15,993 bases of DNA from a virus (lineage: Duplodnaviria > Heunggongvirae > Uroviricota > Caudoviricetes): the IMG/VR virus record IMGVR_UViG_637000264_000001; one strand, 5' to 3'. A program made the position numbers and the translations under genes. The notes beneath the pieces are model-generated. The model searched no databases. It had not been told where the DNA came from and saw only the letters and a list, made by a program, of their open reading frames with translations. Below, one piece after another: positions 1 through 15,993 of this stretch; the first letter of the stretch is position 1, and every line of letters begins with the position of its first letter.

Positions 1-45
1 GTGATAGTCTTAATACTAGTTTTTAGACTTGTCATTGGAGAACAG

Positions 46-411
46 ATTATTGATGTCTTAGGGCCGGAGAAACGCAGACGGCGTACCACACAGGAAAAGA
101 TCGCAATTGTTCAGCAGAGCTTTGAACCGGGGATGACGGTCTCCCTCGTTGCCCGGCAACATGGTGTAGCAGCCAGCCAGTTATTTCTCTGGCGTAAGCA
201 ATACCAGGAAGGAAGTCTTACTGCTGTGGCCGCCGGAGAACAGGTTGTTCCTGCCTCTGAACTTGCTGCCGCCATGAAGCAGATTAAAGAACTCCAGCGC
301 CTGCTCGGCAAGAAAACGATGGAAAATGAACTCCTCAAAGAAGCCGTTGAATATGGACGGGCAAAAAAGTGGATAGCGCACGCGCCCTTATTGCCCGGGG
401 ATGGGGAGTAA
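46..411 (+). CDS. insC: IS2 transposase OrfA (InsC); expected initiator position reads ATT instead of ATG
   Basis: Translation ...[40 protein letters not shown]... ending PLLPGDGE matches InsC; codon 46..48 is att where InsC (MIDVLGPEK...) needs ATG. The ORF-track start at position 1 is a window-edge artefact. Confidence 0.8.
363..369 (+). promoter_or_regulatory. A6G slippery heptamer (aaaaaag), candidate programmed -1 frameshift site joining insC to insD
   Basis: gcaaaaaagtgg at the insC/insD overlap; IS3-family elements make an OrfAB fusion by -1 slippage on A6G motifs (established knowledge). Confidence 0.7.
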
Positions 412-1274
412 GCTTAGTCAGCCGTTGTCTCCGGGTGTCGCGTGCGCAGTTGCACGTCATTCTCAGACGAACCGATGACTGGATGGATGGCCGCCGCAGT
501 CGTCACACTGATGATACGGATGTGCTTCTCCGTATACACCATGTTATCGGAGAGCTGCCCACGTATGGTTATCGTCGGGTATGGGCGCTGCTTCGCAGAC
601 AGGCAGAACTTGATGGTATGCCTGCGATCAATGCCAAACGTGTTTACCGGATCATGCGCCAGAATGCGCTGTTGCTTGAGCGAAAACCTGCTGTACCGCC
701 ATCGAAACGGGCACATACAGGCAGAGTAGCCGTGAAAGAAAGCAATCAGCGATGGTGCTCTGACGGGTTCGAGTTCTGCTGTGATAACGGAGAGAGACTG
801 CGTGTCACGTTCGCGCTGGACTGCTGTGATCGTGAGGCACTGCACTGGGCGGGGACTACCGGCGGCTTCAACAGTGAAACAGTACAGGACGTCATGCTGG
901 GAGCGGTGGAACGCCGCTTCGGCAACGATCTTCCGTCGTCTCCAGTGGAGTGGCTGACGGATAATGGTTCATGCTACCGGGCTAATGAAACACGCCAGTT
1001 CGCCCGGATGTTGGGACTTGAACCGAAGAACACGGCGGTGCGGAGTCCGGAGAGTAACGGAATAGCAGAGAGCTTCGTGAAAACGATAAAGCGTGACTAC
1101 ATCAGTATCATGCCCAAACCAGACGGGTTAACGGCAGCAAAGAACCTTGCAGAGGCGTTCGAGCATTATAACGAATGGCATCCGCATAGTGCGCTGGGTT
1201 ATCGCTCGCCACGGGAATATCTGCGGCAGCGGGCTTGTAATGGGTTAAGTGATAACAGATGTCTGGAAATATAG
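369..1274 (+). CDS. insD: IS2 transposase OrfB (InsD), DDE integrase-type catalytic domain
   Basis: 301-aa [33 protein letters not shown]...[24 protein letters not shown], overlapping insC in the -1 frame; matches recalled InsD over its whole length. Confidence 0.92.
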
Positions 1275-1333
1275 GGGCAAATCCAGTATAAGCCATTATC
1301 AAACCCACCCGTAGATAGGCTTTGTAATGGCTA

Positions 1334-1623
1334 CTTCTTCAGAAATGATTCGATGAATTCACGTCGAGGATGACGATAGTTCAGAATATCTTCTGGCATC
1401 CTCATAAAGCGGTTGTTGCCGTCTTTGGCAGTAACAAAACAGCTGTGAACTCCGCAGACATCCGTTTTGATCGTGTCGCTATACTCAAAAAGCAACTGAG
1501 CCATCTTCTCTTGCCATTCTGGAGGCATAGCCTCCATGAATACTCGCGGCATCACGCAGAACGACGCATGCGTAAGACCAAACCACAGTTGCAGGTCTTT
1601 ACGATATTCTTCATCCATCGTCT
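1334..1623 (-). pseudogene. Orphan 3' fragment (about 97 codons) of an unidentified gene, trapped between the IS2 right end and the IS911 end
   Basis: Minus-strand frame open from the IS911 boundary to stop at 1331..1333 (...EEYRKDLQLWFGLTHASFCVMPRVFMEAMPPEWQEKMAQLLFEYSDTIKTDVCGVHSCFVTAKDGNNRFMRMPEDILNYRHPRREFIESFLKK). The first 26 codons of track ORF 1331..1702 are IS911 sequence. Family not recognised. Confidence 0.5.
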
Positions 1624-1631
1624 TGAAGTGG

Positions 1632-2801
<1,170 letters not shown>

Positions 2802-2873
2802 TGGAGCACCTGTGTTGTTCTGAGGTGAGCATATCACCTCTGTTCAGGTGGCCAAATTCAGTGTGCCACTTCA

Positions 2874-3914
2874 CCTTTCTTTCCGAACCTTGTTGATCAC
2901 CTTCTGGTTAAGCATCACACGGCTGATGGCGTTGAAGATGGCATTTCAATCTGCTACTTCAAGCCATACTCGCAAGGCCGTGCTCGCTGGCAGGGTGACA
3001 CAATCCACGGCGTGTGGTTTGACGAAGAGCCACCATACAGCATTTATGGCGAAGGTCTTACCCGTACCAACAAATACGGGCAATTCTCAATTCTGACGTT
3101 TACCCCGCTGATGGGGATGTCTGACGTTGTTACCAAGTTCCTGAAGAACCCCAGCAAGTCGCAGAAAGTGGTCAACATGACCATCTATGACGCTGAGCAC
3201 TATACCGACGAGCAGAAAGAGCAAATCATCGCATCATATCCCGAGCATGAGAGAGAGGCGCGTGCTCGCGGTATTCCTACGATGGGTAGTGGTCGAATCT
3301 TCCAGATACCGGAAGAGACGATTAAGTGTCAGCCGTTCGAGTGTCCTGATCACTTCTACGTAATTGGCGGGATGGATTTCGGATGGGATCACCCACAGGC
3401 GCAAGTTCAGCTTTGGTGGGATAAGGAGGCAGACACAATCTACGTTTCACGCGTGTGGAAGGCGAAAGAAAAAACAGCCGTTCAGGCGTGGGGAGCCGTT
3501 AAATCATGGGCGCATAAAGTGCCAACCGCATGGCCTCATGATGGAAACCAGCACGAGAAGGGCGGCGGTGAGCAGCTCAAAGGGCAGTATGCAGACGCTG
3601 GATTTATGATGTTGCAGGAGCATGCGACATGGCCTGATGGCGGTAACGCTGTTGAGCCAGGCATCACTGAATTGCGCGACATGATGCTCGATGGTCGCTT
3701 CAAAGTATTCAATACCTGTGAGCCATTCTTTGAGGAGTTCCGCCTCTATCACCGTGATGAAAACGGGAAAATCGTCAAGCTTAACGACGACGTGCTATCC
3801 GCCGTTCGCTATGCATACATGATGCGCCGCTTCGCAAAAATGATGCGCGACATCAAAAAACCAAAAGAGAAAAAGATACCAGCCCCAATCAGGCCCATCG
3901 CACGGAGAACTTAA
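2874..3914 (+). pseudogene. Terminase large subunit, 5'-truncated by IS911 (about 347 C-terminal codons remain: Walker B onward plus nuclease domain)
   Basis: Frame open from the IS911 boundary: ...GDTIHGVWFDEEPPYSIYGEG... (Walker-B-like hhhDEE), later HFYVIGGMDFGWDHP and KLNDDVLSAVRYAYMMRR typical of terminase nuclease domains; stop 3912..3914 abuts the portal ATG. No Walker A segment in the window. Confidence 0.8.
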
Positions 3915-6080
3915 ATGGCCGACGAAAACAGACTCAATTCCATTCTGTGTAAGTTTGACGCAGACTGGATGGCGAGCGATGAAGCCAGAACCGAGGCGAC
4001 AAATGACCTGTATTTTAGCCGAGTGTCGCAATGGGATGACTGGCTATCAAACTACACTACCCTGCAATATCGCGGACAATTCGATGTTGTTCGCCCGGAG
4101 GTCAGGAAACTGGTCGCAGAGATGCGCCGGAACCCTGTCGACGTTCTCTTCCGACCCAAAGACGGCGCTAATCCTGATGCAGCCGATGTATTGATGGGGA
4201 TGTATCGTACTGATATGCGCCATAACACGGCAAAGATTGCCGTTAACGTTGGCGTTCGTGAGCAGATAGAGTCAGGCGTTGGTGCATGGCGTCTGGTCAC
4301 GCAGTACGAAGACAACGATCCAACAAGCAACAATCAGGTAATCCGACGCCTGCCAATCCATGAAGCCTGCTCACACGTCATATGGGACGCCAACAGCAAG
4401 CAGATGGATAAGAGCGACGCTAAGCACTGCACGGTGATTAACGCCTTGTCGCGCAATGGCTGGAAAGAGTTCGCAGAGGATTACGGTATTGACCCGGATA
4501 CCCTGCCATCTTTCCAGAATCCTAACGATACATGGCTATTCCCGTGGGTGTCGAATGATGTCGTCTACGTCGCTGAGTATTACGAGGTAGAAGAGGAGAA
4601 GGAGAAGGTCTTCATCTACCGCGACCCGCTGACAGGTGAGCCGGTCAGCTATTACCAGCAGGATATCAAAGACGTCATCGACGACCTGGCTAATCGTGGA
4701 TTCATTAAGGTAGCAGAGCGCAAGGTGAAGCGTCGGCGTGTGTATAAGTCGATCATCACCTGTACGCAGATACTGAAAGACCGCGAGAAGATAGCCGGAG
4801 AGCATATTCCAATCGTTCCAGTGTATGGCGAATGGTCATTCGCTGGTGACAAGGAGTGCTACGAGGGTGTGGTAAGGCTGACGAAAGACGGTCAACGCCT
4901 TCGTAACATGATTATGTCGTTCAACGCCGATATTGTTGCTCGGTCACCGAAGAAGAAACCGACCTTCTTCCCTGAGCAAATCGAAGGCTACGAATACATG
5001 TACGGCGGAAATGATGACTATCCGTACTATCTGCAGAACAGGACTGATGAAAACGGTAACGACCTGCCGATTGGTCCAATCTCCTACATGGAAAACCCTG
5101 AAGTGCCGCAAGCCAACGCTTACATGCTTGAGGCTGCCACCAACGCAGTGAAAGAAGTGGCTAGTCTTGGCGTGGATGCGCAGGCGGCAAATGGTCAGGT
5201 CGCTTTTGATACCGTCAATCAACTGAACATGCGGGCAGACCTTGAGACATACGTGTTTCAGGATAACCTGGCTACCGCAATGCGACGTGATGGCGAGATT
5301 TATGCCTCAATGGTCAACGATATTTATGACGTTCCTCGTCATGTAACGCTGACACTTGAAGATGGAAGCGAGAAAGACGTTCAACTCTATGCGCAAGTTG
5401 TCGATTACCAGTCCGGCAATGTGGTCACACTCAACGACATTCGCGGTCGATATGAGTGCTATACAGACGTTGGGCCATCCTTCCAGAGTATGAAGGAACA
5501 GAACCGCGCAGAGATTCAGGAGTTGCTCACCAAGGTTCCGCAAGGTACTCCAGAGTTCCAGATGCTGATGCTGCAATACTTCACGCTGCTTGACGGTAAA
5601 GGCGTCGAGATGATGCGAGAGTACGCGAACAAGCAACTGGTGATGATGGGGCTGAAGAAACCAGAAACACCTGAAGAGATGGAGATGGTGCAGCAGGCAC
5701 AACAACAGCCGCAGCAGCCATCAGCAGAGCAAATTCAGGCGCAGGGTATCCTTCTGCAAGGTCAGGCTGAATTGCTCAAGGCAGAGAACCAACAGGCGCA
5801 GATTCAGGTTGAAGCTGCCAAGGTTGAAGCCCAAAACCAACTCAACGCCGCGAAGATTGCAGAAATATTCAACAATATGGACCTCGACAAGCAGGCAGAA
5901 CTGCGTGAGTACCTCAGGCTCGTAGGTCAATTCCAGCAACAGCGCAGCAAAGATGCTCGTGCTAACGCTGAGCTGCTTCTTAAAGATGCAGACCAGACTC
6001 ATTCACAACGCATGGATTTCGCGAATCTTATGCGTCAAGTTCAAATCCCCTCCGGCGGAGTAGCCGAGACACCTCAATAA
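3915..6080 (+). CDS. Portal protein (P22 gp1-like, 721 aa)
   Basis: Full-length ORF; near-collinear similarity to P22 portal as I recall it ([11 protein letters not shown]...[15 protein letters not shown]...[15 protein letters not shown]...[23 protein letters not shown]...), with the Gln-rich helical C-terminus. Confidence 0.95.
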
Positions 6081-6093
6081 GAGAGAGTTAATC

Positions 6094-7005
6094 ATGGACC
6101 AAACCACCGACATTCAGGCTTCTGAAGAATTAACCCTGCCCGGCAATCATGCAGCGGCATCTGCTGATGGCTTAGTTGTCGATAATGCCAACGACAGCGC
6201 AGGTCAGGAAGAAGGCTTTGAGATTGTCCGGAAAGACGATGAGAAACCAAAACAAGACCCGGCAACTAATGCTGAATTTGCCCGTCGCCGCATCGAACGC
6301 AAACGCCAGCGTGAGCTTGAGCAGCAGATGGAAGCGGTTAAGCGTGGAGAGTTGCCGGAGCACCTGCGGGTGAACCCTGAGTTACCAAAACAACCAGACC
6401 CTAACGATTATCTTTCCGAAGATGCACTGGCTAAGTACGACTATGACCAGAGCCGCGCACTGGCTGCCTTCCAGCAGGCAAACAGTGAATGGCAGATCAA
6501 GGCTATGGACGCACGAAGCCAGGCTGTCGCCGAGCAGGGTCGCAAAACTCAGGAGTTCACCCAGCAATCAGCGCAATACGTCGAGGCGGCCCGTAAGCAC
6601 TACGAGGCAGCGGAAAAGCTCAATATCCCTGACTATCAGGAGAAAGAGGATGCATTCATGCAACTGGTGCCGCCAGCAGTCGGTGCCGACATCATGCGCC
6701 TCTTCCCGGAGAAATCCGCCGCTCTCATGTATCACCTTGGTGCTAATCCTGAGAAAACACGCCAGTTGCTGGCGATGGACGGGCAATCCGCGCTGATTGA
6801 ACTCACTCGACTGTCAGAACGTTTAACTCTCAAGCCTCGAGCCAAGCCTGTTTCAGAAGCCCCGTTACCTGATGAACCCATTCAGGGACATGCTGTTGCT
6901 GCAAATATCTCTGCGATTGAAAAGCAGATGGAGGCGGCAGCAAACAAAGGGGATGTAGAGACGTACCGCAAGCTCAAGGCGCAACTGAATAAAGGAATTC
7001 GATAA
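6094..7005 (+). CDS. Scaffolding protein (P22 gp8-like, 303 aa)
   Basis: Position between portal and coat; same length as P22 scaffold; sequence ...[49 protein letters not shown]...[18 protein letters not shown]; RBS gagag upstream. Confidence 0.9.
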
Positions 7006-8300
7006 TGGCATTAAATGAAGGTCAACTGGTCACGTATGCTCTGGATGAAATCATCGGAACCGTCCAGAACCTGACGCCAATGGCGTCAAAAGTGACAAAA
7101 TACCCCCCTCCGGCAGAATCCATGCAGCGTTCAAGCAACACCGTGTGGATGCCTGTTGAGCAGGAAGCGCCAACCCAGACTGGCTGGGATTTAACTGGCA
7201 ACGCAACCGGGATTCTGGAACTCTCCGTGAAGTGCAACATGGGCGATCCGGATAACGATTTCTTCGAGCTTCGTGCAGATGACCTGCGTGATGAGCGTTC
7301 TTACCGTCGCCGCATCCAGGCATCCGCCAAAAAACTGGCGAATAACATTGAGTCAGCGATTGCCAAACAGGCAACTGAAATGGGCTCGCTTGTTGTTCAC
7401 GATACCCGCGCAATTGGTCCATCGACTGGCCTGCCTGGCTGGGATTTTGTGTCTGATGCAGAGCGACTGATGTTCTCCCGTGAGCTAAACCGCGACATGG
7501 GCATCAGTTACTTCCTGAACCCTGACGATTACCGCAAAGCAGGCCGCAACCTGGTAGATGGTGACATCTTCGGGCGCGTTCCTGAAGAAGCATATCGAAA
7601 CGGTACTATTCAGCGTCAGATTGCTGGCTTTGATGAAATTCTTCGCTCACCGAAACTTCCGGCAGTTACCAAGTCAACCGCGACTGGTGTAACTGTTTCT
7701 GGTGCGCAGAAGTTTAAGCCGCAGGCATACACCCTTGATACCGATGGTAACAAAGAGAACGTCGACAACCGTGTTGCAACGGTGACCGTATCCTCCACCA
7801 CCGGATTTAAGCGCGGCGACAAAATCAGCTTCATTGGTGTGAAGTTCCTGTCTCAGATGGCGAAGAATGTGCTGACTGATGACGCGACTTTCTCAATCAC
7901 CCGTGTGATCGATGGTACTCACATCGAAATCACGCCGAAGCCGATTGCGCTGGATGACGCGTCACTGACAAAAGAAGAGAAGGCTTACGCTAACGTAAAC
8001 ACCTCTCTTGCTGATACCACTCCGGTAAACGTTCTGAACGTGGCAACAACCACCGCTAACGTGTTCTGGGCTGATGACTCAATCCGCCTGCTGTCTCAGC
8101 CGATCCCGGTAACCCATGAACTGTTTGCTGGCATGAAAACGTCTTCCTTCAGCATTCCAGGTATTGGTGTTAACGGCATCTTCGCAACGCAGGGTGATAT
8201 CAACACTCTGTCTGGTAAGTGCCGTATTGCTGTGTGGTATTCAGCATGTGCTGTACGACCAGAGGCAATTGGTGTTGGTCTGCCTAACCAGACCGCGTGA
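7005..8300 (+). CDS. Major capsid (coat) protein (P22 gp5-like, 431 aa)
   Basis: [10 protein letters not shown]...[23 protein letters not shown]...[29 protein letters not shown]... closely matches P22 coat; start overlaps scaffold stop (taatg). Confidence 0.95.
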
Positions 8301-8306
8301 TAACCA

Positions 8307-8331
8307 GAGGGAGCTTCGGCTCCCGTTTTTA
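8307..8331 (+). terminator. Rho-independent terminator-like hairpin directly after the coat gene
   Basis: gggagc-ttcg-gctccc (6-bp GC-rich stem 8309..8314 / 8319..8324, TTCG tetraloop) followed by gttttta. Confidence 0.7.
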
Positions 8332-8344
8332 TCTGGAGACAAGC

Positions 8345-8575
8345 ATGACACACATGATCTTTCGTCATGGCGACATGAAGAAGTGGAAAGGCGTTGGCTA
8401 CGACTTTGAAATCGTGAAAGCCGAAGAGCTTCAGGAATATCTGGATGCTGGCTGGTTTTCACATCCTGATGACCTTTTGAAGGATGTTGCAGAGCCAGAG
8501 CCAGAAGAAAAACAGCGTAAAAAGCCTGGTCGAAAACCTAAGGCGGCAGCAGATGAACCTGACAACGAAGGGTGA
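8345..8575 (+). CDS. Small hypothetical protein (76 aa) between coat and gp4-like genes
   Basis: ATG at 8345 with ggaga 7 nt upstream; [76 protein letters not shown]; 3' end overlaps the next gene start by 23 nt. No family recognised. Confidence 0.6.
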
Positions 8576-9053
8576 TTTAGTTCTTGCGGCATTACGTAAG
8601 CTCGGTGTTGCATCAAATGCCACGTTAACCGATGTCGAACCGCAGTCTATGGAAGACGGCGTCAACGACCTTGAAATGATGATGGCTGAATGGCTTGGCG
8701 GTGATGCGTCACCTGGTATCAACGTTGGCTACATTTTTGCTGATGCAGATGTTGCTCCGGATCCGGGCGATGAGCACGGTTTATCAAATAACGCTATCAA
8801 TGCCGTCATTTTCAACCTTGCCTGCCGAATTGCTCCAGATTATGCGCTGGAAGCGTCTGCAAAACTTATAACCACTGCCAGATACGGGAAAGAGCGACTC
8901 GTCAAACTGTCTGCAATGGACAGGGCAAAAGCAGCTAAATGTAAGTCCGGTTATCCAAACCGTATGCCTGTTGGTAGTGGTAACCAGTTGGCGAAGTGGA
9001 ATGGTTGGAATTACTTCCACCGAAAGGAACCTTGCGATAACGGGAGCGAATAA
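8553..9053 (+). CDS. Head-completion / tail-accessory protein (P22 gp4-like, 166 aa)
   Basis: [47 protein letters not shown]...[14 protein letters not shown]... resembles P22 gp4 and has the same length; the track ORF from 8484 is an upstream in-frame extension. Confidence 0.85.
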
Positions 9054-10471
9054 TGCCTATTCAGCAACTTCCGCTTATGAAAGGTGTCGGCAAAGACTTC
9101 CGAAACGCCGACTATATCGACTATCTGCCAGTGAATATGCTGGCTACACCCAAAGAAATCCTGAACAGCAGCGGATATCTTCGCTCATTCCCGGGCATTG
9201 CCAAACGTTCTGACGTGAACGGTGTATCTCGCGGCGTCGAGTACAACATGGCGCAGAATGCTGTTTATCGCGTGTGTGGCGGCAAGCTGTACAAAGGAGA
9301 AAGTGAAGTCGGTGATGTTGCCGGAAGTGGTCGTGTATCAATGGCGCATGGTCGGACATCACAGGCGGTAGGCGTTAATGGTCAACTGGTCGAGTATCGC
9401 TATGATGGCACGGTCAAAACCGTCTCAAACTGGCCTACAGACAGTGGATTCACTCAGTATGAGTTAGGTTCAGTTCGCGACATTACGCGCTTACGTGGGC
9501 GTTATGCGTGGTCAAAAGACGGAACTGATTCATGGTTTATCACTGACCTTGAAGACGAATCTCATCCTGACCGTTACAGCGCACAATATCGTGCCGAGTC
9601 TCAGCCTGACGGCATCATCGGTATCGGGACATGGCGAGACTTCATCGTCTGCTTTGGTTCATCGACTATTGAATATTTCTCCCTGACTGGCGCAACCACC
9701 GTTGGTGCCGCTTTGTATGTTGCACAACCATCGCTGATGGTGCAGAAAGGCATTGCCGGAACTTACTGCAAAACGCCATTCGCTGATTCGTATGCGTTTA
9801 TCAGCAATCCGGCAACGGGTGCGCCGTCTGTGTATATCATCGACTCCGGTCAGGTGTCACCAATTGCCAGCGCGAGCATTGAGAAAATCCTCCGCTCCTA
9901 CACTGCTGATGAACTGGCTGATGGTGTGATGGAATCGCTGCGATTTGATGCTCATGAGTTGCTGATTATCCACCTTCCGCGTCACGTCCTCGTGTACGAC
10001 GCATCTTCAATCGCCAATGGCCCACAATGGTGTGTGCTGAAAACAGGTCTGTATGACGATGTGTACCGCGCTATCGACTTCGTTTACGAAGGCAATCAGA
10101 TAACGTGCGGCGATAAGCTGGAATCTGTTACCGGGAAACTGCAATTCGATATCAGCAGCCAGTACGACAAGCAACAGGAACACCTGCTGTTTACTCCACT
10201 CTTCAAAGCGGATAACGCCAGAGTGTTCGACCTTGAGGTTGAATCGTCAACTGGCGTTGCGCAGTACGCCGACCGCCTTTTTCTCTCTGCAACCACTGAC
10301 TGCATCAATTACGGGCGTGAGCAGATGATTGAGCAGAATGAACCGTTCGTTTACGACAAGCGTGTTTTGTGGAAGCGAGTAGGGCGCATCAGGAAAAATG
10401 TCGGCTTCAAATTGCGCGTTATCACGAAGTCACCTGTCACTCTGTCTGGCGCTCAGATAAGGATTGAGTAA
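9053..10471 (+). CDS. Tail-accessory protein (P22 gp10-like, 472 aa)
   Basis: [49 protein letters not shown]... strong collinear match to P22 gp10, same length; taatg overlap with upstream gene. Confidence 0.9.
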
Positions 10472-11319
10472 TGGCTGATTCGAATCTCAATGTGCCGGTA
10501 ATCATCCAAGCTACGCGGCTCGATACATCAGTCCTTCCACGCAATATCTTCTCGCAGTCGTATCTGCTTTACGTTATCGCACAGGGCACTGATGTTGGTA
10601 ACGTGGCTAACAAAGCCAACGAGGCCGGACAGGGCGCTTATGATGCACAGGTCAGGAACGATGAGCAGGATGTGATTCTCGCTGACCATGAGCAGCGAAT
10701 TTCTGCTGCGGAAGCAACGCTTGTTAATCATGAGGAGCGAATCAGACAGGCAGAATCAACTCTTCAGGACCATGAAACACGAATAGCTCAGAATGAAAGC
10801 GATATTTCGTCGCTTGACACAAGAGTTCAGTCGCTGGAGTCGCAGGTTTCAGACCATGAAACGCGCATCGATGCTCTGGAGTATGCAACCACACGCAAGA
10901 AGTCAGAGGTTGTTTACTCTGGTGTATCTGTAACCATCCCGACAGCGCCGACCAACCTTGTTAGCCTGCTGAAAACGCTCACACCGTCATCCGGCTCGTT
11001 GGCACCATTCTTCGACACCGTTAACAACAAGATGGTTGTGTTCAACGAGAACAAAACCCTGCTCTTCAAGTTGTCGATTGTCGGCACGTGGCCCAGCGGA
11101 ACCGCCAACAGGTCAATGCAGCTAACCTTTTCCGGCTCTGTTCCTGACACACTGGTCAGCAGTCGTAATGCGGCGACAACAACCGACAACATCCTGTTAG
11201 CTACGTTCTTCAGCGTGGATAAAGACGGCTTTCTTGCCACAAATGGCAGTACGTTAACCATTCAGTCGAATGGTGCGGCGTTTACTGCCACAACCATCAA
11301 GATAATCGCGGAGCAGTGA
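10471..11319 (+). CDS. Tail needle protein (P22 gp26 family) with C-terminal knob domain (Sf6/HK620 type, 282 aa)
   Basis: N-terminus [43 protein letters not shown] matches gp26; central heptad-repeat coiled coil; C-terminal ~140 aa non-helical Ser/Thr-rich extension. Confidence 0.85.
10684..10880 (+). repeat. Tandem ~42-nt (14-codon) periodic repeats encoding DHExRI-type coiled-coil units within the tail needle gene
   Basis: gaccatgagcagcgaat (10684), aatcatgaggagcgaat (10726), gaccatgaaacacgaat (10768), gaccatgaaacgcgcat (10851); protein [67 protein letters not shown]. Confidence 0.7.
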
Positions 11320-11774
11320 TGATTACATTCAAACCAACGCGAAACATCGACCTGATAGAAGCAGTCGGAAATCACCCTGACATTATCGCCGGGAGCAACA
11401 ACGGTGATGGATACGACTACAAACCTGAATGCCGTTACTTTGAGGTGAACGTGCACGGTCAGTTTGGCGGCATTGTTTACTATCAGGAGATTCAGCCGCT
11501 GACATTAGATTGCCACGCCATGTACCTGCCAGAGATTCGCGGCTTCAGCAAGGAAATTGGGCTGGCGTTCTGGCGATACATTCTGACTAACACCACCGTT
11601 CAGTGCGTAACATCGTTCGCTGCACGCAAATTCCGACACGGTCAGATGTACTGCGCAATGATTGGCCTTAAGCGTGTAGGAACCATCAAGAAATACTTCA
11701 AAGGCGTGGATGACGTGACTTTTTACAGCGCCACACGCGAAGAACTAATCGACTTCCTGAATCACGGGAGATAG
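11319..11774 (+). CDS. P22 gp14-like virion assembly protein (151 aa)
   Basis: [23 protein letters not shown]...YDYKPECRYFEVNVHGQFGGIVYY...; ATG at 11319 overlaps the tail needle stop (gtgatga); the track start at 11316 is GTG one codon upstream. Confidence 0.8.
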   Translation: MITFKPTRNIDLIEAVGNHPDIIAGSNNGDGYDYKPECRYFEVNVHGQFGGIVYYQEIQPLTLDCHAMYLPEIRGFSKEIGLAFWRYILTNTTVQCVTSFAARKFRHGQMYCAMIGLKRVGTIKKYFKGVDDVTFYSATREELIDFLNHGR

Positions 11775-11776
11775 CC

Positions 11777-12469
11777 ATGTTATATGCATTTAAGCTGGGC
11801 AGAAAACTGCGCGGCGAGGAACCTTATTGCCCTGAAAAAGGCGGGAAAGGTGGCAGTTCTGATAAAAGCGCAAAGTATGCAGCAGAAGCCCAGAAGTATG
11901 CTGCAGACCTGCAAAATCAGCAGTGGCAGACGATCATGAAAAACCTTGCTCCGTTCACGCCTCTTGCGGAGCAGTATGTTAACCAGCTTCAGAACCTTTC
12001 CAGTTTAGAAGGTCAGGGGCAGGCACTTAATCAGTATTACAACTCTAAGCAGTATAAAGACCTTGCAGGGCAGGCGCGTTACCAGAGTCTTGCTGCTGCG
12101 GAGGCGACGGGTGGACTTGGTTCGACAGCCACAAGCAATCAACTGGCTACGATCGCGCCGACACTCGGTCAGTCTTGGTTATCAAATCAGATGAGCAATT
12201 ACAACAATCTGGCAAACGTTGGGCTTGGTGCGCTGCAAGGTCAGGCAAACGCCGGGCAGACGTACGCCAACAACATGAGCAGCATTGCACAGCAAAGCGC
12301 AGCTCTTGCCGCTGCTAATGCCAATAAACCATCAAGTCTTCAGACTGCAATTAGCGGTGGCACGTCTGGTGCGATTGCCGGTGCAGGTCTTGCCAGCCTT
12401 TTGGGAACATCAACGCCTTGGGGCGCTGGTATTGGTGCTGGTATCGGATTGCTTGGCTCGTTGTTTTAA
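11777..12469 (+). CDS. Ejection (injection) protein, P22 gp7-like (230 aa)
   Basis: Position after gp14-like; Gln/Asn/Ala-rich with Gly/Ala-rich hydrophobic C-terminus (GAIAGAGLASLLGTSTPWGAGIGAGIGLLGSLF). Confidence 0.75.
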   Translation: MLYAFKLGRKLRGEEPYCPEKGGKGGSSDKSAKYAAEAQKYAADLQNQQWQTIMKNLAPFTPLAEQYVNQLQNLSSLEGQGQALNQYYNSKQYKDLAGQARYQSLAAAEATGGLGSTATSNQLATIAPTLGQSWLSNQMSNYNNLANVGLGALQGQANAGQTYANNMSSIAQQSAALAAANANKPSSLQTAISGGTSGAIAGAGLASLLGTSTPWGAGIGAGIGLLGSLF

Positions 12470-12478
12470 GGGGGAATC

Positions 12479-13810
12479 ATGGCTACTTGGCAAGGAACAA
12501 ACGGCGGATTGTTGGCTGGTATCGGCGGCGTCAACTCAAACGCTCCGAGCGTAAATGACATCGGCAATACGCTTCAGCTTATCAGGCAGAACAATGATAT
12601 TGAGCGTTCAGGCGCTAACAATGTTGGGCTGACTGCTTTGCAAGGTCTTTCAGGTATTGCGGGTGTTTTTCAGCAGGAAAAGCAGGCTCAGCGGCAGAAA
12701 GAATTTCAGCAGGCGTACGCTAATGCTTATGCGTCTGGTGATCGCGGTGCTTTGCGTCAGTTGGCTACTCAATATCCAGACCAGATTGAATCCGTTCGTA
12801 AAGGCATGGGATTCATTGATGAAGAGCAGCGTAATTCTATCGGCACCTTAGCGGCTGGCGCACGCCTTGCGTCATCGTCTCCAGAAGCAATGCAATCATG
12901 GCTGCAAAACAACGCCGGTGAGTTAGCTCGTGTTGGCGTTAATCCTCATGACGTCGCTCAGATGTACCAACAGAACCCGCGGCAGTTCGGCGAATTTGTC
13001 GATCACCTGGGGATGAACAGTCTCGGGCCCGAAAAATACTTTGACCTACAGGATAAAATGCAGGGTCGCCAGGTTACCATGCGCGGTCAGGATCTGGATT
13101 CGCAAACCGCCGCTCGGAATCAGGCAATCACAATGCGCGGACAAGATATCCAGGCGAATTTAGGTCAGCAGCGCATTAATCTGGACGCAGAAACAAACCG
13201 CATTAACAACGAAAATAAGCGCCTTGACCGGATGCTATCAGCAGAAACTAACGACCTGAAGCGCCAGGAAATACAGAGCCGCATAGCAGCCAACAACCAG
13301 CAGTTGCAGCAGAAGCAGCAAGCGCTAAATGATGGCTACAAAGACGGCATCAACACCCTCACAACCAGCATGTTCACTCTGAACGATATCGTTAGTTCTC
13401 CTTCACTTAAGAGCATTACAGGCTTACGTGGAGTAATCCCCAACGTTCCAGGCTCACAGGCTGCAGACACTCAGGCACGACTTGATACCTTTAAATCACA
13501 AGCATACCTGACAGCGGTTCAGGCCATGCGAGGCATGGGCGCACTTTCTGATGCCGAGGGCAAAAAGCTCGACCAGGCTGTTGGTTCGCTGCAGAACTCG
13601 CAGAGCGAGGAGTCCTTTCGTCGCAACGCTGGCGTCATCCTGAACACGCTCAACCAGAAGCGTAATGAGGCGGTTGGTAAGTACGTTCAGCAAAACGGTA
13701 TCAAGCGAGTGGAAGCGCCTCAGGCTTCTATAGATTACCTGAAGCAGCACCCCGAGCTGTCAATCGACTTCATTAATCGCTACGGATATCTTCCATCTTT
13801 GGGGCAGTAA
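12479..13810 (+). CDS. Ejection protein, P22 gp20-like (443 aa)
   Basis: Synteny; Gln-rich predicted coiled-coil protein with internal repeat VTMRGQDLD / ITMRGQDIQ; RBS aaggggg upstream. Confidence 0.75.
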   Translation: MATWQGTNGGLLAGIGGVNSNAPSVNDIGNTLQLIRQNNDIERSGANNVGLTALQGLSGIAGVFQQEKQAQRQKEFQQAYANAYASGDRGALRQLATQYPDQIESVRKGMGFIDEEQRNSIGTLAAGARLASSSPEAMQSWLQNNAGELARVGVNPHDVAQMYQQNPRQFGEFVDHLGMNSLGPEKYFDLQDKMQGRQVTMRGQDLDSQTAARNQAITMRGQDIQANLGQQRINLDAETNRINNENKRLDRMLSAETNDLKRQEIQSRIAANNQQLQQKQQALNDGYKDGINTLTTSMFTLNDIVSSPSLKSITGLRGVIPNVPGSQAADTQARLDTFKSQAYLTAVQAMRGMGALSDAEGKKLDQAVGSLQNSQSEESFRRNAGVILNTLNQKRNEAVGKYVQQNGIKRVEAPQASIDYLKQHPELSIDFINRYGYLPSLGQ

Positions 13811-15541
13811 ATGGCTAATTACCGTGATTTGTTAGAGCAGGCTGGCGCACGTTACGGTGTGCCAGAAGGGTTGATGACTGCACTGGGTGCCAAGGAGTCT
13901 TCTTACAACCCTGCCGCAGTAAGCTCCGCCGGGGCTGTAGGATTGACTCAGGTCATGCCTGGGACATGGCGTGATATGGGTTATACCGATGAGCAAATGC
14001 AAAACCCCGAATATCAGGCTGACGCTGGCGCGCGCTATCTGGCAAAGATGTACCAGCAGTTTGGTAACTGGCGTGACTCTCTTCAGGCTTATCACGACGG
14101 TCCCGGCAACGTTATGAAGGCAAAGCGTGGTGAATATACGCCAGGACCTGAAGGCCGCGGTTACGTTGATGATCGCTTTGCTCAATGGGCTGGTGACCCG
14201 GTGACAGACTCAACAGTCGAACAGCGCGCCACCTCTGCAAAGGTACATCCTCAGCAAGACCCTAACAACCCGTTTGCACAACTGGAAGTACAGTCATCCG
14301 AACAAGTATCGGCATCAGGTGTGCAGTCAGACCCAAATAATCCATTTGCTCAGATTGAGCAGCAGGCAGCCAGTCAGCAGCCACCTCAACCCGTAAGTTC
14401 TGTCGCACCGAAACCTGTTCAGCAACAAACAGTTAATCAGGCCAATAATGCACCAACACGGGAAGAACCATCATTGATGCAACAAGCTGGCGATTGGCTC
14501 ACTGGTGGTCAAAGTGCAGGGCAAATTGCAGAACAGGCTGGTCGTGGTCTGGTAAACATACCATTTGACGTATTGCAGGGTGGCGCAAGTCTGATTAATG
14601 CAATCAGTCAGGGGCTTGGGGGGCCAAAAGTATTGGATGATGTTTATCGTCCAGTAGACAGACCGACAGACCCCTACGCGCAAGCTGGAGAGTCAATAGG
14701 CGGTTATCTTGTTCCTGGAGCAGGTGTAGCTGGAAACATGGTCATTGGTTCTCTCGCTGACGCGGCGAATCAACGGGGTGATTTTGCCGAAAATGCCGCT
14801 ATTAATGCCGGACTTAGCATTGCTACGCATGGCCTGATAAATGGCGTTACCCGTGGTGTTCGTGGTGCATCAAATATAATTAGTGGCAATAAAACATCTG
14901 CACAGAGAGCGACCACTGCGCCAACAGAAACATCACCATTCTCCGGTGATGCCGCTGCAGCAACAAATCCTGCGGTTCATGCCGCAGAGGCAAGAGTAGC
15001 ACAAGGTGTACCAATGACGCCTGCGACGAAGAACCCAGAGGAAGTCGTTCGCACAGTAGCAGCACAAAAAAGGCCAAATCTCGCTTCATCGCTTGATGAA
15101 CTAGATATCAATCCTCAGGCTGAAGTTCTGGAGTCTGCTGAAAGGCTTAATGTTGATTCATTACTCCCTTCACACTTTTCCGGGAACGAGCAATACAAGG
15201 CAGTTGAGCAAGCAATCAAGTCCCGTGCGGGTTCTGCTCTACAGGTGCAGGAAAATGAAGCAATCAGGCAGCTAGCACAGGGCGCGGGTGAGATAATTGA
15301 TCGCGTTTCCGGTGCAAAAGATGCTCTTGGTATGAGCGACAAGTTTATTGATACGGTCAATGGAAGAATGTCTGCGCTGATGAAACGAAGCGACCAGCTT
15401 TATCGCAATGTTGAAAAGGCGATGCCTGCAGGTGCAAAAATTGATGCGCCATCAACAAGGTCAATGCTCAAACAGGTGGCAGAAGATCTTGGCGGGATGA
15501 AAAACCTTGACCCTATTGAAAAGAGAGTTGAGGTAGCCTGA
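13811..15541 (+). CDS. Ejection protein (P22 gp16 position) with N-terminal lytic transglycosylase (SLT) domain; the last three codons and stop come from the adjacent IS600 end
   Basis: N-terminus has the SLT signature [28 protein letters not shown] ... AYHDGPGNV; the frame enters the IS600 terminus at 15529 and stops at 15539..15541 (...KRVEVA*), so the native 3' end is probably missing. Confidence 0.8.
14258..14359 (+). repeat. Direct repeat encoding DPNNPFAQ(L/I)E twice, 72 nt apart, in the linker after the SLT domain
   Basis: gaccctaacaacccgtttgcacaactggaa (14258) and gacccaaataatccatttgctcagattgag (14330). Confidence 0.75.
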
Positions 15542-15612
15542 GTTTAACGGACACTCCTTCCTGAAATAGAATGGCATCAGAAGGAGCTAATAATGAGCAG
15601 AAAAACCCAACG
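15529..15612 (+). mobile_element. IS600 left-end fragment (terminal repeat plus first 7 codons of orfA), interrupted by the IS629-type element
   Basis: tgaggtagcctgagtttaacggacactccttcctgaaatagaatggcatcagaaggagctaataATGAGCAGAAAAACCCAACG matches my recollection of the IS600 left end and orfA start (MSRKTQR); continuity then breaks into the IS629 terminus. Confidence 0.6.
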
Positions 15613-15993
15613 TGAACCGCCCCGGGAATCCTGGAGACTAAACTTCCTGAGAAAGAGGTAAACAGGATGACTAAAAATACTCGTTTTTCCCCCGAAGTCC
15701 GTCAACGGGCAGTCCGTATGGTTCTGGAAAGTCAGGGCGAATATGACTCACAATGGGCGACAATTTGTTCCATTGCCCCAAAGATTGGCTGTACGCCGGA
15801 GACTCTGCGTGTCTGGGGTCGCCAGCATGAGCGGGATACCGGGGGCGGTGATGGAGGGCTCACCACCGCTGAACGTCAGCGTCTGAAAGAGCTGGAGCGT
15901 GAAAATCGTGAACTGCGCCGCAGTAACGATATCCTTCGCCAGGCTTCCGCTTATTTTGCGAAGGCGGAGTTCGACCGCCTCTGGAAAAAATGA
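15613..15993 (+). mobile_element. IS629 / IS1203-type element (IS3 family), left end and orfA; continues beyond the window
   Basis: Left terminus tgaaccgccccgggaatcctggagactaaacttcctgagaaagaggtaaacagg followed by orfA; matches the recalled IS629/IS1203 left end. Confidence 0.85.
15667..15993 (+). CDS. IS629/IS1203 OrfA (108 aa)
   Basis: [108 protein letters not shown]; ends in ggaaaaaatga, the expected orfA/orfB overlap. Confidence 0.88.

Follow-up and report, generated by a model that had tools for sequence, protein, structure and literature searches.

Background

The proA-yaiC prophage region of Shigella flexneri has been drawn with IS600 and IS629 (PMC3306764), and an inversion around SHI-O that distinguishes strain 8401 from strain 301 (inversion 1) has been reported to be IS629-mediated (Nie et al. 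2006, PMC1550401). The locus described here shares with inversion 1 the species, the insertion sequence, the class of mechanism and the neighbourhood (approximately 250 to 330 kb, in the serotype-conversion region by yaiC/adrA). It may or may not be the same event: inversion 1 is a difference between 8401 and 301, the junction analysed here is common to 8401, 2457T and 2002017, and it may therefore be older.

The subject of this report is IMG/VR virus record IMGVR_UViG_637000264_000001, a stretch of 15,993 nucleotides hereafter called the window. A first-pass annotation had read its right edge as an IS629-type element nested inside a copy of IS600 that itself truncates a phage ejection protein gene. 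We argue that this edge is, with good confidence, one breakpoint of an inversion between two copies of IS629 in a P22-like prophage of S. flexneri, the outcome of four IS events. An IS-mediated inversion of this kind has already been described for S. flexneri, and the present one is a textbook case that involves no new mechanism.

Results and discussion

A defective P22-like prophage enclosed by insertion sequences

The features of the window, with the evidence for each in brackets, are as follows.

1 to 1290, plus strand: IS2, cut by the window start (99.5% identity to the annotated IS2 at L014:1633-2922)
1624 to 2873, minus strand: IS911, 1250 bp, the left boundary of the remnant, adjoining the truncated terL
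2874 to 15528, plus strand: defective P22-like prophage remnant, Lederbergvirus, Sf101/APC_JM3.2-like (phage matches, Pfam)
13811 to 15541, plus strand: truncated gp16-type ejection/lytic transglycosylase gene (open reading frame list, translation ending KRVEVA)
15529 to 15612, plus strand: IS600 left end, nt 1-84 (terminus TGAGGTAGCC..., alignment with intact IS600 and Sf101)
15593 to 15661, plus strand: putative chimeric 22-codon open reading frame, the IS600 orfA start reading into the IS629 left end (from sequence)
15613 to 15993, plus strand: IS629 nt 1-381, the element extending past the window (left terminus TGAACCGCCCCGGG...)
15667 to 15993, plus strand: intact IS629 orfA, 108 aa (open reading frame list; its stop codon is the window end)
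15948 to 15993, plus strand: ALIL frameshift pseudoknot, first 46 of 117 nt (Rfam RF01497)

The remnant carries genes for the large terminase subunit (terL), portal, scaffold, coat, head-completion and needle proteins, together with ejection genes of the gp7, gp20 and gp16 types, and over window positions 2871-15528 it is 96.8% identical to phage APC_JM3.2, with further Lederbergvirus genomes also matching. From terL to gp16 its gene order is that of the Sf101/Sf6-type Lederbergvirus genomes; compared with prophages of that type, however, it lacks everything to the left of approximately nt 456 of terL and everything to the right of nt 1718 of gp16, and it is incapable of forming phage. The loss at the left is seen against phage Dewey, with terL at 467-1966 and the first matching base at 923. 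There the remnant abuts IS911, whose terminus reads ...GTGCCACTTCA followed directly by CCTTTC, and which is found at 99.5 to 99.8% identity over 1250 nt in three other records (L017-L019) and is 98.8% identical to the annotated IS911 of L014. All internal genes are as long as their counterparts in phages, with the exception of the tail-needle and gp4-like genes, and the suggestion that the region is an insertion hotspot under relaxed selection is unsupported. The lengths of the tail-needle and gp4-like genes vary among the phages compared.

At the right end, the gp16-type gene matches its Sf101 homologue (2736 nt, 911 aa) at 98.5% identity over 1718 nt, and this homology ends at window position 15528, so that the window copy breaks at nt 1718. 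The frame comprises 572 phage codons, a Val codon that spans the junction (15527-15529) and then EVA and a stop contributed by IS600, exactly the IS-derived tail that had been anticipated. The product retains the Pfam SLT and Phage_P22_gp16 domains but only the first 572 of the 911 Sf101 residues. The exact 576-aa product is present in 1949 collection blocks and on at least 1000 contigs, named for S. flexneri. The truncated gene and the remnant as a whole are most likely inert cargo.

IS600 and IS629 at the window edge

Reference elements were taken from annotated Escherichia coli records: a 1264-bp IS600 (L003:3745-5008), annotated as 'IS3-like element IS600 family transposase' and flanked at both ends by the 3-bp duplication GTG, and a 1310-bp IS629 (L001:3116-4425). 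By BLASTN, window positions 15529-15613 are identical to IS600 nt 1-85 (85/85 nt, E 1e-39) and positions 15613-15993 match IS629 nt 1-381 at 98.95% identity; a phage record (H37) annotated 'IS629' matches window positions 15612-15993 at 99.2%. The T at 15613 is compatible with both elements, and the junction therefore joins IS600 nt 84 to IS629 nt 1. Both boundaries placed by the first-pass annotation, the IS600 left end at 15529 and the IS629/IS1203 terminus at approximately 15613, thus proved exact to the base: 15529-15612 aligns to the IS600 terminus at 100% identity, and orfA is interrupted at 15612. Intact IS600 reads on as ...CAACGTTACTCTAAAG where the window has ...CAACGTGAACCGCCCC, and IS600 orfA, which starts at 15593, therefore stops short at the junction with six full codons and 2 nt remaining.

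The stub shares with IS600, an IS3-family element of Shigella and E. coli, the TGAGGTAGCC terminus and the orfA start; unlike a complete IS600, it is all that the window contains, the remaining 1180 nt lying at another chromosomal locus. The second element shares with IS629/IS1203, also of the IS3 family, the intact 108-aa orfA, whose product carries the Pfam domain HTH_Tnp_1 (PF01527; identical gene in L010), the ALIL pseudoknot, and 3-bp target duplications (ACG and ATC). The pseudoknot, the signal for programmed -1 frameshifting between orfA and orfB, scores 116 bits (RF01497) at L006:12138-12254, in the same IS629 copy, and was placed on the window by an offset of 3810 (L006:11803 being window position 15613). 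The complete copy in closed genomes measures 1306 bp against 1310 bp in the reference, because 4 bp, reference nt 580-583, are deleted, and its two flanks derive from two different insertion sites. This deletion is present in every copy read at either of the two loci described below; it frameshifts orfB, which lies outside the window and is called as a shortened 222-aa open reading frame. Judged from the frameshift, the element is probably non-autonomous.

Two chromosomal loci share the broken IS600

Closed genomes of S. flexneri (L005, L008-L010 and L012, strain 2002017 among them) continue the window as IS600(1-84)...CAACG/IS629/ATCAGGTATC, where a slash marks an element boundary, and IS629 is followed by psiF, phoA, iraP and ddlA (locus 1). 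Homology to E. coli resumes at the first base past IS629, and the boundary is IS629/ATC-psiF. The native E. coli psiF-adrA spacer reads ...GTTAGCACT-ATC-AGGTATC... and has a single ATC, and the two ends of the locus-1 IS629 carry unmatched triplets, ACG on one side and ATC on the other. Two further genomes (L006, L007) have an identical IS600 stub and psiF neighbour, with an intron or small indels within IS629. The same junctions recur base for base in closed chromosomes of 4.4 to 4.7 Mb, including those of 2457T, 8401 and 2002017, and the structure is present in thousands of S. flexneri assemblies. A further rearrangement of the flank in L012 was considered and rejected; it is the same psiF region, in which many scattered differences probably stem from assembly error.

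The rest of the IS600 lies beside adrA (locus 2), a locus reached through cluster membership of 114-aa chimeric forms of OrfA' (a 120-aa form led only to contigs below 1 kb). In L028-L030 (L030 being LM651928.1) and the viral contigs L020 and L021 the order is adrA...GTTAGCACTATC/IS629/ACGTTACTCTAAAG, in which the ACGTTACTCTAAAG side is IS600 from nt 85, so that IS600 nt 85-1264 directly follows the right end of IS629. In short, locus 2 is adrA-ATC/IS629/ACG-IS600(85-1264), and the ACG ahead of IS600 nt 85 repeats IS600 nt 82-84, that is, a 3-bp target duplication. The adrA-side junction was predicted from the inversion model set out below and was afterwards found as predicted.

To the right of IS600 in L029 and L030 lie the 3' end of a tailspike gene and oac (88% identity to Sf101, L002:8231-9718), followed by int. 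This right flank differs by strain, an SfV-type int fragment taking its place in L020, L021 and L028, and the ancestral flank was therefore deduced from colinearity with Sf101. The IS600 remainder that the first-pass annotation had expected does exist, albeit at this second locus and next to a truncated tailspike gene. Its view that the tailspike is cut off from the late operon is likewise correct, at a distance far greater than had been implied.

A proposed inversion between two copies of IS629

The reconstruction draws on what was observed directly, namely the identities of the elements, four junction sequences, the swapped target duplications and the colinearity of two restored products. 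Joining the left side of the window to the right side of L030 restores the gene order and orientations of Sf101, and joining the left side of L030 to the right side of L010 restores the E. coli order adrA-psiF-phoA. The target-site duplications that had been called for are present as 3-bp ACG at the IS600 site and ATC at the psiF-adrA site, with each pair split over the two loci.

We propose that IS600 entered the prophage, where its left end now adjoins gp16 at nt 1718, and its right end the tailspike gene at approximately nt 1037. One IS629 would then have inserted directly after nt 84 of IS600, duplicating ACG, and another into the psiF-adrA spacer, duplicating ATC, the relative order of these two insertions being presumptive. 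Before the inversion, the prophage site would have read ...CCCAACG/IS629/ACGTTACTC... and the spacer site ...GCACTATC/IS629/ATCAGGTATC.... Recombination between the oppositely oriented IS629 copies, presumably homologous, would finally have inverted a segment of perhaps 80 kb, leaving the IS629 of the window to link the IS600 stub to psiF and its partner to link adrA to the IS600 remainder, the 3' end of the tailspike gene, oac and int.

Each recombinant junction is found on a contig of 4,733,503 bp, and their co-occurrence is deduced from this equal length and from protein annotation; retention of both on one chromosome requires an inversion and not a deletion. Locus 1 lies on the plus strand at approximately 251 kb in CP001383.1 and locus 2 on the minus strand at approximately 331 kb in LM651928.1, so that the span of about 80 kb and the orientations of the IS629 copies rest on coordinates pooled from different genomes. 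In all genomes read, four positions (nt 206, 317, 330 and 349) distinguish the two copies of IS629, which is consistent with two separate copies; the common 4-bp deletion in orfB could mean that one was copied from the other. Further rearrangements are implied by the arrangement of S. flexneri genes around thrW/proA.

The nest envisaged at the outset, with IS629 inside a complete IS600 and the rest of IS600, gp16 and the tailspike directly downstream, accounts precisely for the left-hand junctions and for the ACG duplication at the matching right-hand junction, and the transposition of IS629 into IS600 was real. The body of IS600, however, does not stand behind the IS629 of the window: every closed genome read with this same truncated gene passes directly from IS629 to the psiF side, 8 to 10 kb of downstream sequence contains no more IS600, and the remainder is at the adrA locus. 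Two stacked insertions are accordingly not the present structure, which is an inversion breakpoint together with a 2.45-kb deletion; the nest is refuted for the genomes read, could hold only in an unseen pre-inversion strain and is very unlikely. An adjacent deletion mediated by IS629, in which the IS600 body, the right arm of the prophage and the chromosome up to psiF were simply lost, would fit the unmatched ACG and ATC at locus 1, and two E. coli records do show an IS600 stub and IS629 followed by unrelated DNA. This explanation is harder still to sustain and must be considered extremely improbable, because the DNA in question survives at the reciprocal junction, which has kept the ACG and the rest of IS600 along with the 3' end of the tailspike gene, oac, int and the second ATC. 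A short-read misjoining of phage, IS600 and IS629 repeats was also weighed, given that both window ends lie inside IS elements and that, for approximately 1500 of the 1949 blocks with the truncated gene, the longest carrying contig is 10 to 20 kb, as is typical of repeat breaks; with identical junctions in multiple closed chromosomes and an 84-bp stub shorter than one sequencing read, it has a negligible chance of being right.

The closest competitor to recombination between two independently inserted copies is a one-step event, in which the IS600-nested IS629 transposed intramolecularly into the psiF-adrA spacer, yielding a copy and an inversion at once and splitting the ATC pair. It predicts all four junctions exactly, a pattern that fits the two-insertion model equally, and it would explain the orfB deletion common to both copies. 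Fresh replicas, however, would not be expected to show four clustered differences (nt 206-349) unless gene conversion followed. IS3-family elements, moreover, move by a copy-out/paste-in route through a circular intermediate, and are not known to form Shapiro-type cointegrates or inversions, both of which count against the one-step event. We regard it as unlikely and retain recombination between two separate insertions.

The outer ends of IS600

Between the two halves of the prophage, IS600 replaces approximately 2.45 kb, from the 3' third of gp16 to nt 1036-1037 or so of the tailspike gene. Whereas the reference copy is flanked by GTG on either side, the outer ends of this IS600 carry no target duplication, the left being AGT (gp16, in the window) and the right ACT (tailspike, in L030) or AAG (in L020); these unmatched flanks therefore imply a later deletion or recombination. 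Recombination between two copies of IS600, or an IS600-associated deletion, would be a likely source of the loss. An 8-mer, AAGAGAGT, stands on the left-hand side of IS600 in the window and on the right-hand side in L020 and L021. It was considered as an 8-bp duplication and rejected, being native both to gp16 (in Sf101) and to SfV-type int; no IS3-family mechanism is known to make 8-bp duplications. Its recurrence may be chance.

Implications for annotation

These results unite the P22-like remnant at approximately 250 kb and the tailspike'-oac-int segment by adrA as two halves of one Sf6/Sf101-like prophage. The exact junction sequences can help to mark lineages or to verify short-read assemblies broken at repeats, and their relevance is mostly limited to annotation. 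Two more speculative readings, both of which we consider quite improbable, are that the 12.6-kb head/ejection block has been selected for a domesticated function and, separately, that IS629 prefers the first 200 nt or so of IS600. The former would accommodate the full length of the comparable internal genes and the identical truncated gp16, with its transglycosylase domain, on at least 1000 contigs, but S. flexneri is young and clonal, which explains these equally well; for the latter, three independent positions in IS600 with one shared orientation could be cited, a pattern explained equally well by the design of the search.

IS600 and IS629 associations elsewhere

The exact IS600/IS629 junction was found in none of 5426 complete E. 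coli genomes or the PLSDB plasmids, all matches consisting of two separated pieces. The IS629-psiF junction was likewise absent from the 5426 E. coli genomes (0/5426), which held no pre-inversion or parallel copy. Scans of metagenomes recovered neither the right IS629/IS600 junction nor the predicted adrA/IS629 junction, and a scan of viral contigs yielded no adrA/IS629 junction because viral contigs end within IS629. Other arrangements of the two elements do occur: IS629 interrupts IS600 at two further sites (L001 and L004), and IS600 interrupts IS629 in L003.

The IS600/IS629 junction

Two reference elements taken from annotated Escherichia coli records served to test the final 465 bases of the window: a 1264-bp IS600 (L003:3745-5008), whose CDS is labelled 'IS3-like element IS600 family transposase', and a 1310-bp IS629 (L001:3116-4425). 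By BLASTN, IS600 nt 1-85 match window 15529-15613 (100%, E 1e-39) and IS629 nt 1-381 match 15613-15993 (98.95%). The T at 15613 fits either element, which places the junction at IS600 nt 84/IS629 nt 1, as claimed by the first-pass annotation. Window 15612-15993 also matches the annotated IS629 of an Stx phage record (99.2%). After the shared IS600 sequence, intact IS600 copies read ...CAACGTTACTCTAAAG and the window reads ...CAACGTGAACCGCC. The IS600 orfA start codon opens a predicted chimeric ORF of 22 codons (15593-15661) that would run into the IS629 left end.

Features of the window

1-1290, IS2
1624-2873, minus strand, IS911
12.65 kb, P22-like late-gene block, from a terL missing about 456 nt at its start to the truncated gp16 gene
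Right end of the window, after truncated gp16, IS600 stub followed by IS629

Homology to Sf101, a reference P22-like phage (98.5%), stops at 15528, nt 1718 of the 2736-nt (911-aa) ejection-protein gene gp16, and the last 10 residues of the ORF at 13811-15541 include an IS-derived tail. The element identities, the coordinates and this tail were all described correctly from the sequence; what proved incomplete was their interpretation as a simple nest of IS629 within IS600. In the assembly collection, the exact 576-aa truncated protein occurs in 1949 blocks (at least 1000 contigs, under the species name Shigella flexneri); closed chromosomes that carry it include those of 2457T (AE014073.1), 8401 (CP000266.1) and 2002017 (CP001383.1). 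CP182555.1 is 100% identical to window 1-3000.

A reciprocal junction at a second locus

In closed genomes, the IS629 starting at 15613 is 1306 bp long and carries a 4-bp deletion that frameshifts orfB; two of the S. flexneri records (L006 and L007) have an intron or small indels within it. Its right end directly adjoins ATCAGGTATC..., the DNA just downstream of psiF, followed by phoA, iraP and ddlA, and homology to E. coli, shared by all 5426 E. coli genomes, begins at the first base past IS629. The 8-10 kb retrieved beyond this point contained no further IS600, gp16 3' part or tailspike, so the idea of a simple nest fails.

Two IMG/VR prophage contigs matched a pattern in which 0-8 free bases separate the right end of IS629 from IS600 nt 86 onwards, with a spacer of exactly ACG (...GGGGCGGTTCA-ACG-TTACTCTAAAG...). 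These bases are IS600 nt 82-84, so IS629 reached its site in IS600 by ordinary transposition, duplicating 3 bp. This junction creates a chimeric ORF, comprising an IS629 tail and IS600 OrfA from codon 7, already annotated as 'IS600 ORF1' (AAN41977.1) in S. flexneri 2a strain 301. Its 114-aa form locates the second locus in three S. flexneri genomes, including the 4.5-Mb chromosome LM651928.1 (L030), in the order proC, adrA (yaiC), ...GTTAGCACTATC/IS629/ACG/IS600 nt 85-1264. The native E. coli psiF-adrA spacer contains a single ATC (GTTAGCACT-ATC-AGGTATC), and the adrA-side junction was predicted from the model before being observed. Each locus carries one copy of ACG and one of ATC, so that both duplications are split:

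Locus 1, IS600(1-84, ending ACG)/IS629/ATC-psiF
Locus 2, adrA-ATC/IS629/ACG-IS600(85-1264)

A probable inversion by flank exchange

Two IS629 copies, one inserted in IS600 and the other in the psiF-adrA spacer, have most likely exchanged flanks. Since both recombinant junctions are retained, and marker proteins of both lie on a contig of the same length (4,733,503 bp), the event was most likely an inversion, not a deletion. The IS629 copies lie on opposite strands in two different genomes (plus at ~251 kb in CP001383.1, minus at ~331 kb in LM651928.1), from whose coordinates we infer a span of ~80 kb. Reversing the exchange yields adrA-psiF-phoA, colinear with E. coli, and gp20, gp16', IS600::IS629, 'tailspike, oac, int, colinear with Sf101. 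The latter match follows from the DNA right of IS600 in two locus-2 records (L029, L030), where the last ~700 nt of the tailspike gene and oac, 88% identical to Sf101 (L002:8231-9718), precede int.

The same four junctions would result if IS629 had transposed intramolecularly in a single inversion-type step, and this would fit the 4-bp deletion (reference nt 580-583) common to the copies at both loci (L005, L010, L012; L028, L029, L030). Such a step is nevertheless less likely than flank exchange, because IS3-family elements move through a circular copy-out/paste-in intermediate and every genome read shows differences between the two IS629 copies at nt 206, 317, 330 and 349. Locus 2 and the closed genomes exclude both an adjacent deletion and an assembly artefact. 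Judging from the frameshift in orfB, neither IS629 copy would be able to make its own transposase. In one strain (CP058589.1), orfB of the IS629 that begins at 15613 is interrupted at approximately reference nt 786/787 by a 2.26-kb group II intron (L006:12594-14852; 5' end GTGTG; Rfam RF00029, 64.9 bits, L006:14775-14861).

The feature is real and fully explained by standard IS biology; it is already annotated in reference genomes, and the elements, annotation and mechanism class are established. IS600 and IS629 ORFs were drawn in the S. flexneri proA-yaiC prophage region (Sun et al. 2011, PMC3306764). Nie et al. 2006 (PMC1550401) report that S. flexneri inversions are IS-mediated and that IS629 mediates 'inversion 1', located at about 300 kb around SHI-O, the serotype-conversion island. 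The present inversion may be 'inversion 1' or, its junction being common to 8401, 2457T and 2002017, an older event.

Distribution and IS600 surroundings

The suggestion of an insertion hotspot was not borne out: in the collections searched, only the S. flexneri lineage carries the exact junction. IS629 lies within IS600 at two other E. coli positions: after nt 115 (115/116) in MB06102 (L001:3001-3116) and after ~nt 186 in O145 plasmids (pRM8988-C1, L004:3476-3665), in both cases without the IS600 remainder at the IS629 right end. The search could detect only same-strand, nearby pieces, so these nests are no evidence of targeting. The reverse nest also occurs: the IS600 reference copy lies complete inside an IS629 orfA, bordered by a 3-bp GTG duplication.

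Compared with Sf101, IS600 stands in place of 2453 bp, which begin at gp16 nt 1719 and end at tailspike nt ~1036. The bases bordering IS600 on the outside, AGT and ACT, form no duplication, which points to a second IS600-associated event, possibly recombination between two copies of IS600 or a deletion next to it. What follows the IS600 remainder on the right varies with the strain: L029 and L030 have tailspike'-oac-int, and L020, L021 (viral contigs) and L028 (S. flexneri) carry an SfV-type int fragment, an att site, gtrA, gtrB, a type-specific gtr gene and a complete P22-like SfX-type prophage. This variation implies that IS600 has recombined further in the region of serotype conversion. The 8-mer AAGAGAGT, native gp16 sequence directly left of IS600 (window 15521-15528), recurs directly right of IS600 in SfX-type strains (L020:12127-12134, L021:8713-8720, minus strand), there as native SfV-type int sequence (CCGGAAGAGAGTAAATC). 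An IS3-family target duplication would be shorter than this 8-mer, whose presence on both sides may be chance.

The prophage remnant

Relaxed selection had also been proposed, yet the remnant genes are intact. Lengths equal those of phage homologues for portal (721 aa), scaffold (303), coat (431), gp10-like (472), gp14-like (151), gp7-like (230) and gp20-like (443) proteins. The tail-needle and gp4-like genes do not match their homologues in length, but both vary among the compared phages too. With most internal genes of homologue length, no decay is visible within the late-gene block. The left edge is likewise an IS stack, made up of IS2, a 333-bp stretch (1291-1623) and then IS911, which abuts the 5'-truncated terL. 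IS911 is reversed in strains L017 and L018, and the DNA further left is strain-dependent (type VI secretion genes in L016 and L017, lambdoid lysis genes in L018 and L019), indicating further IS911-mediated rearrangement.
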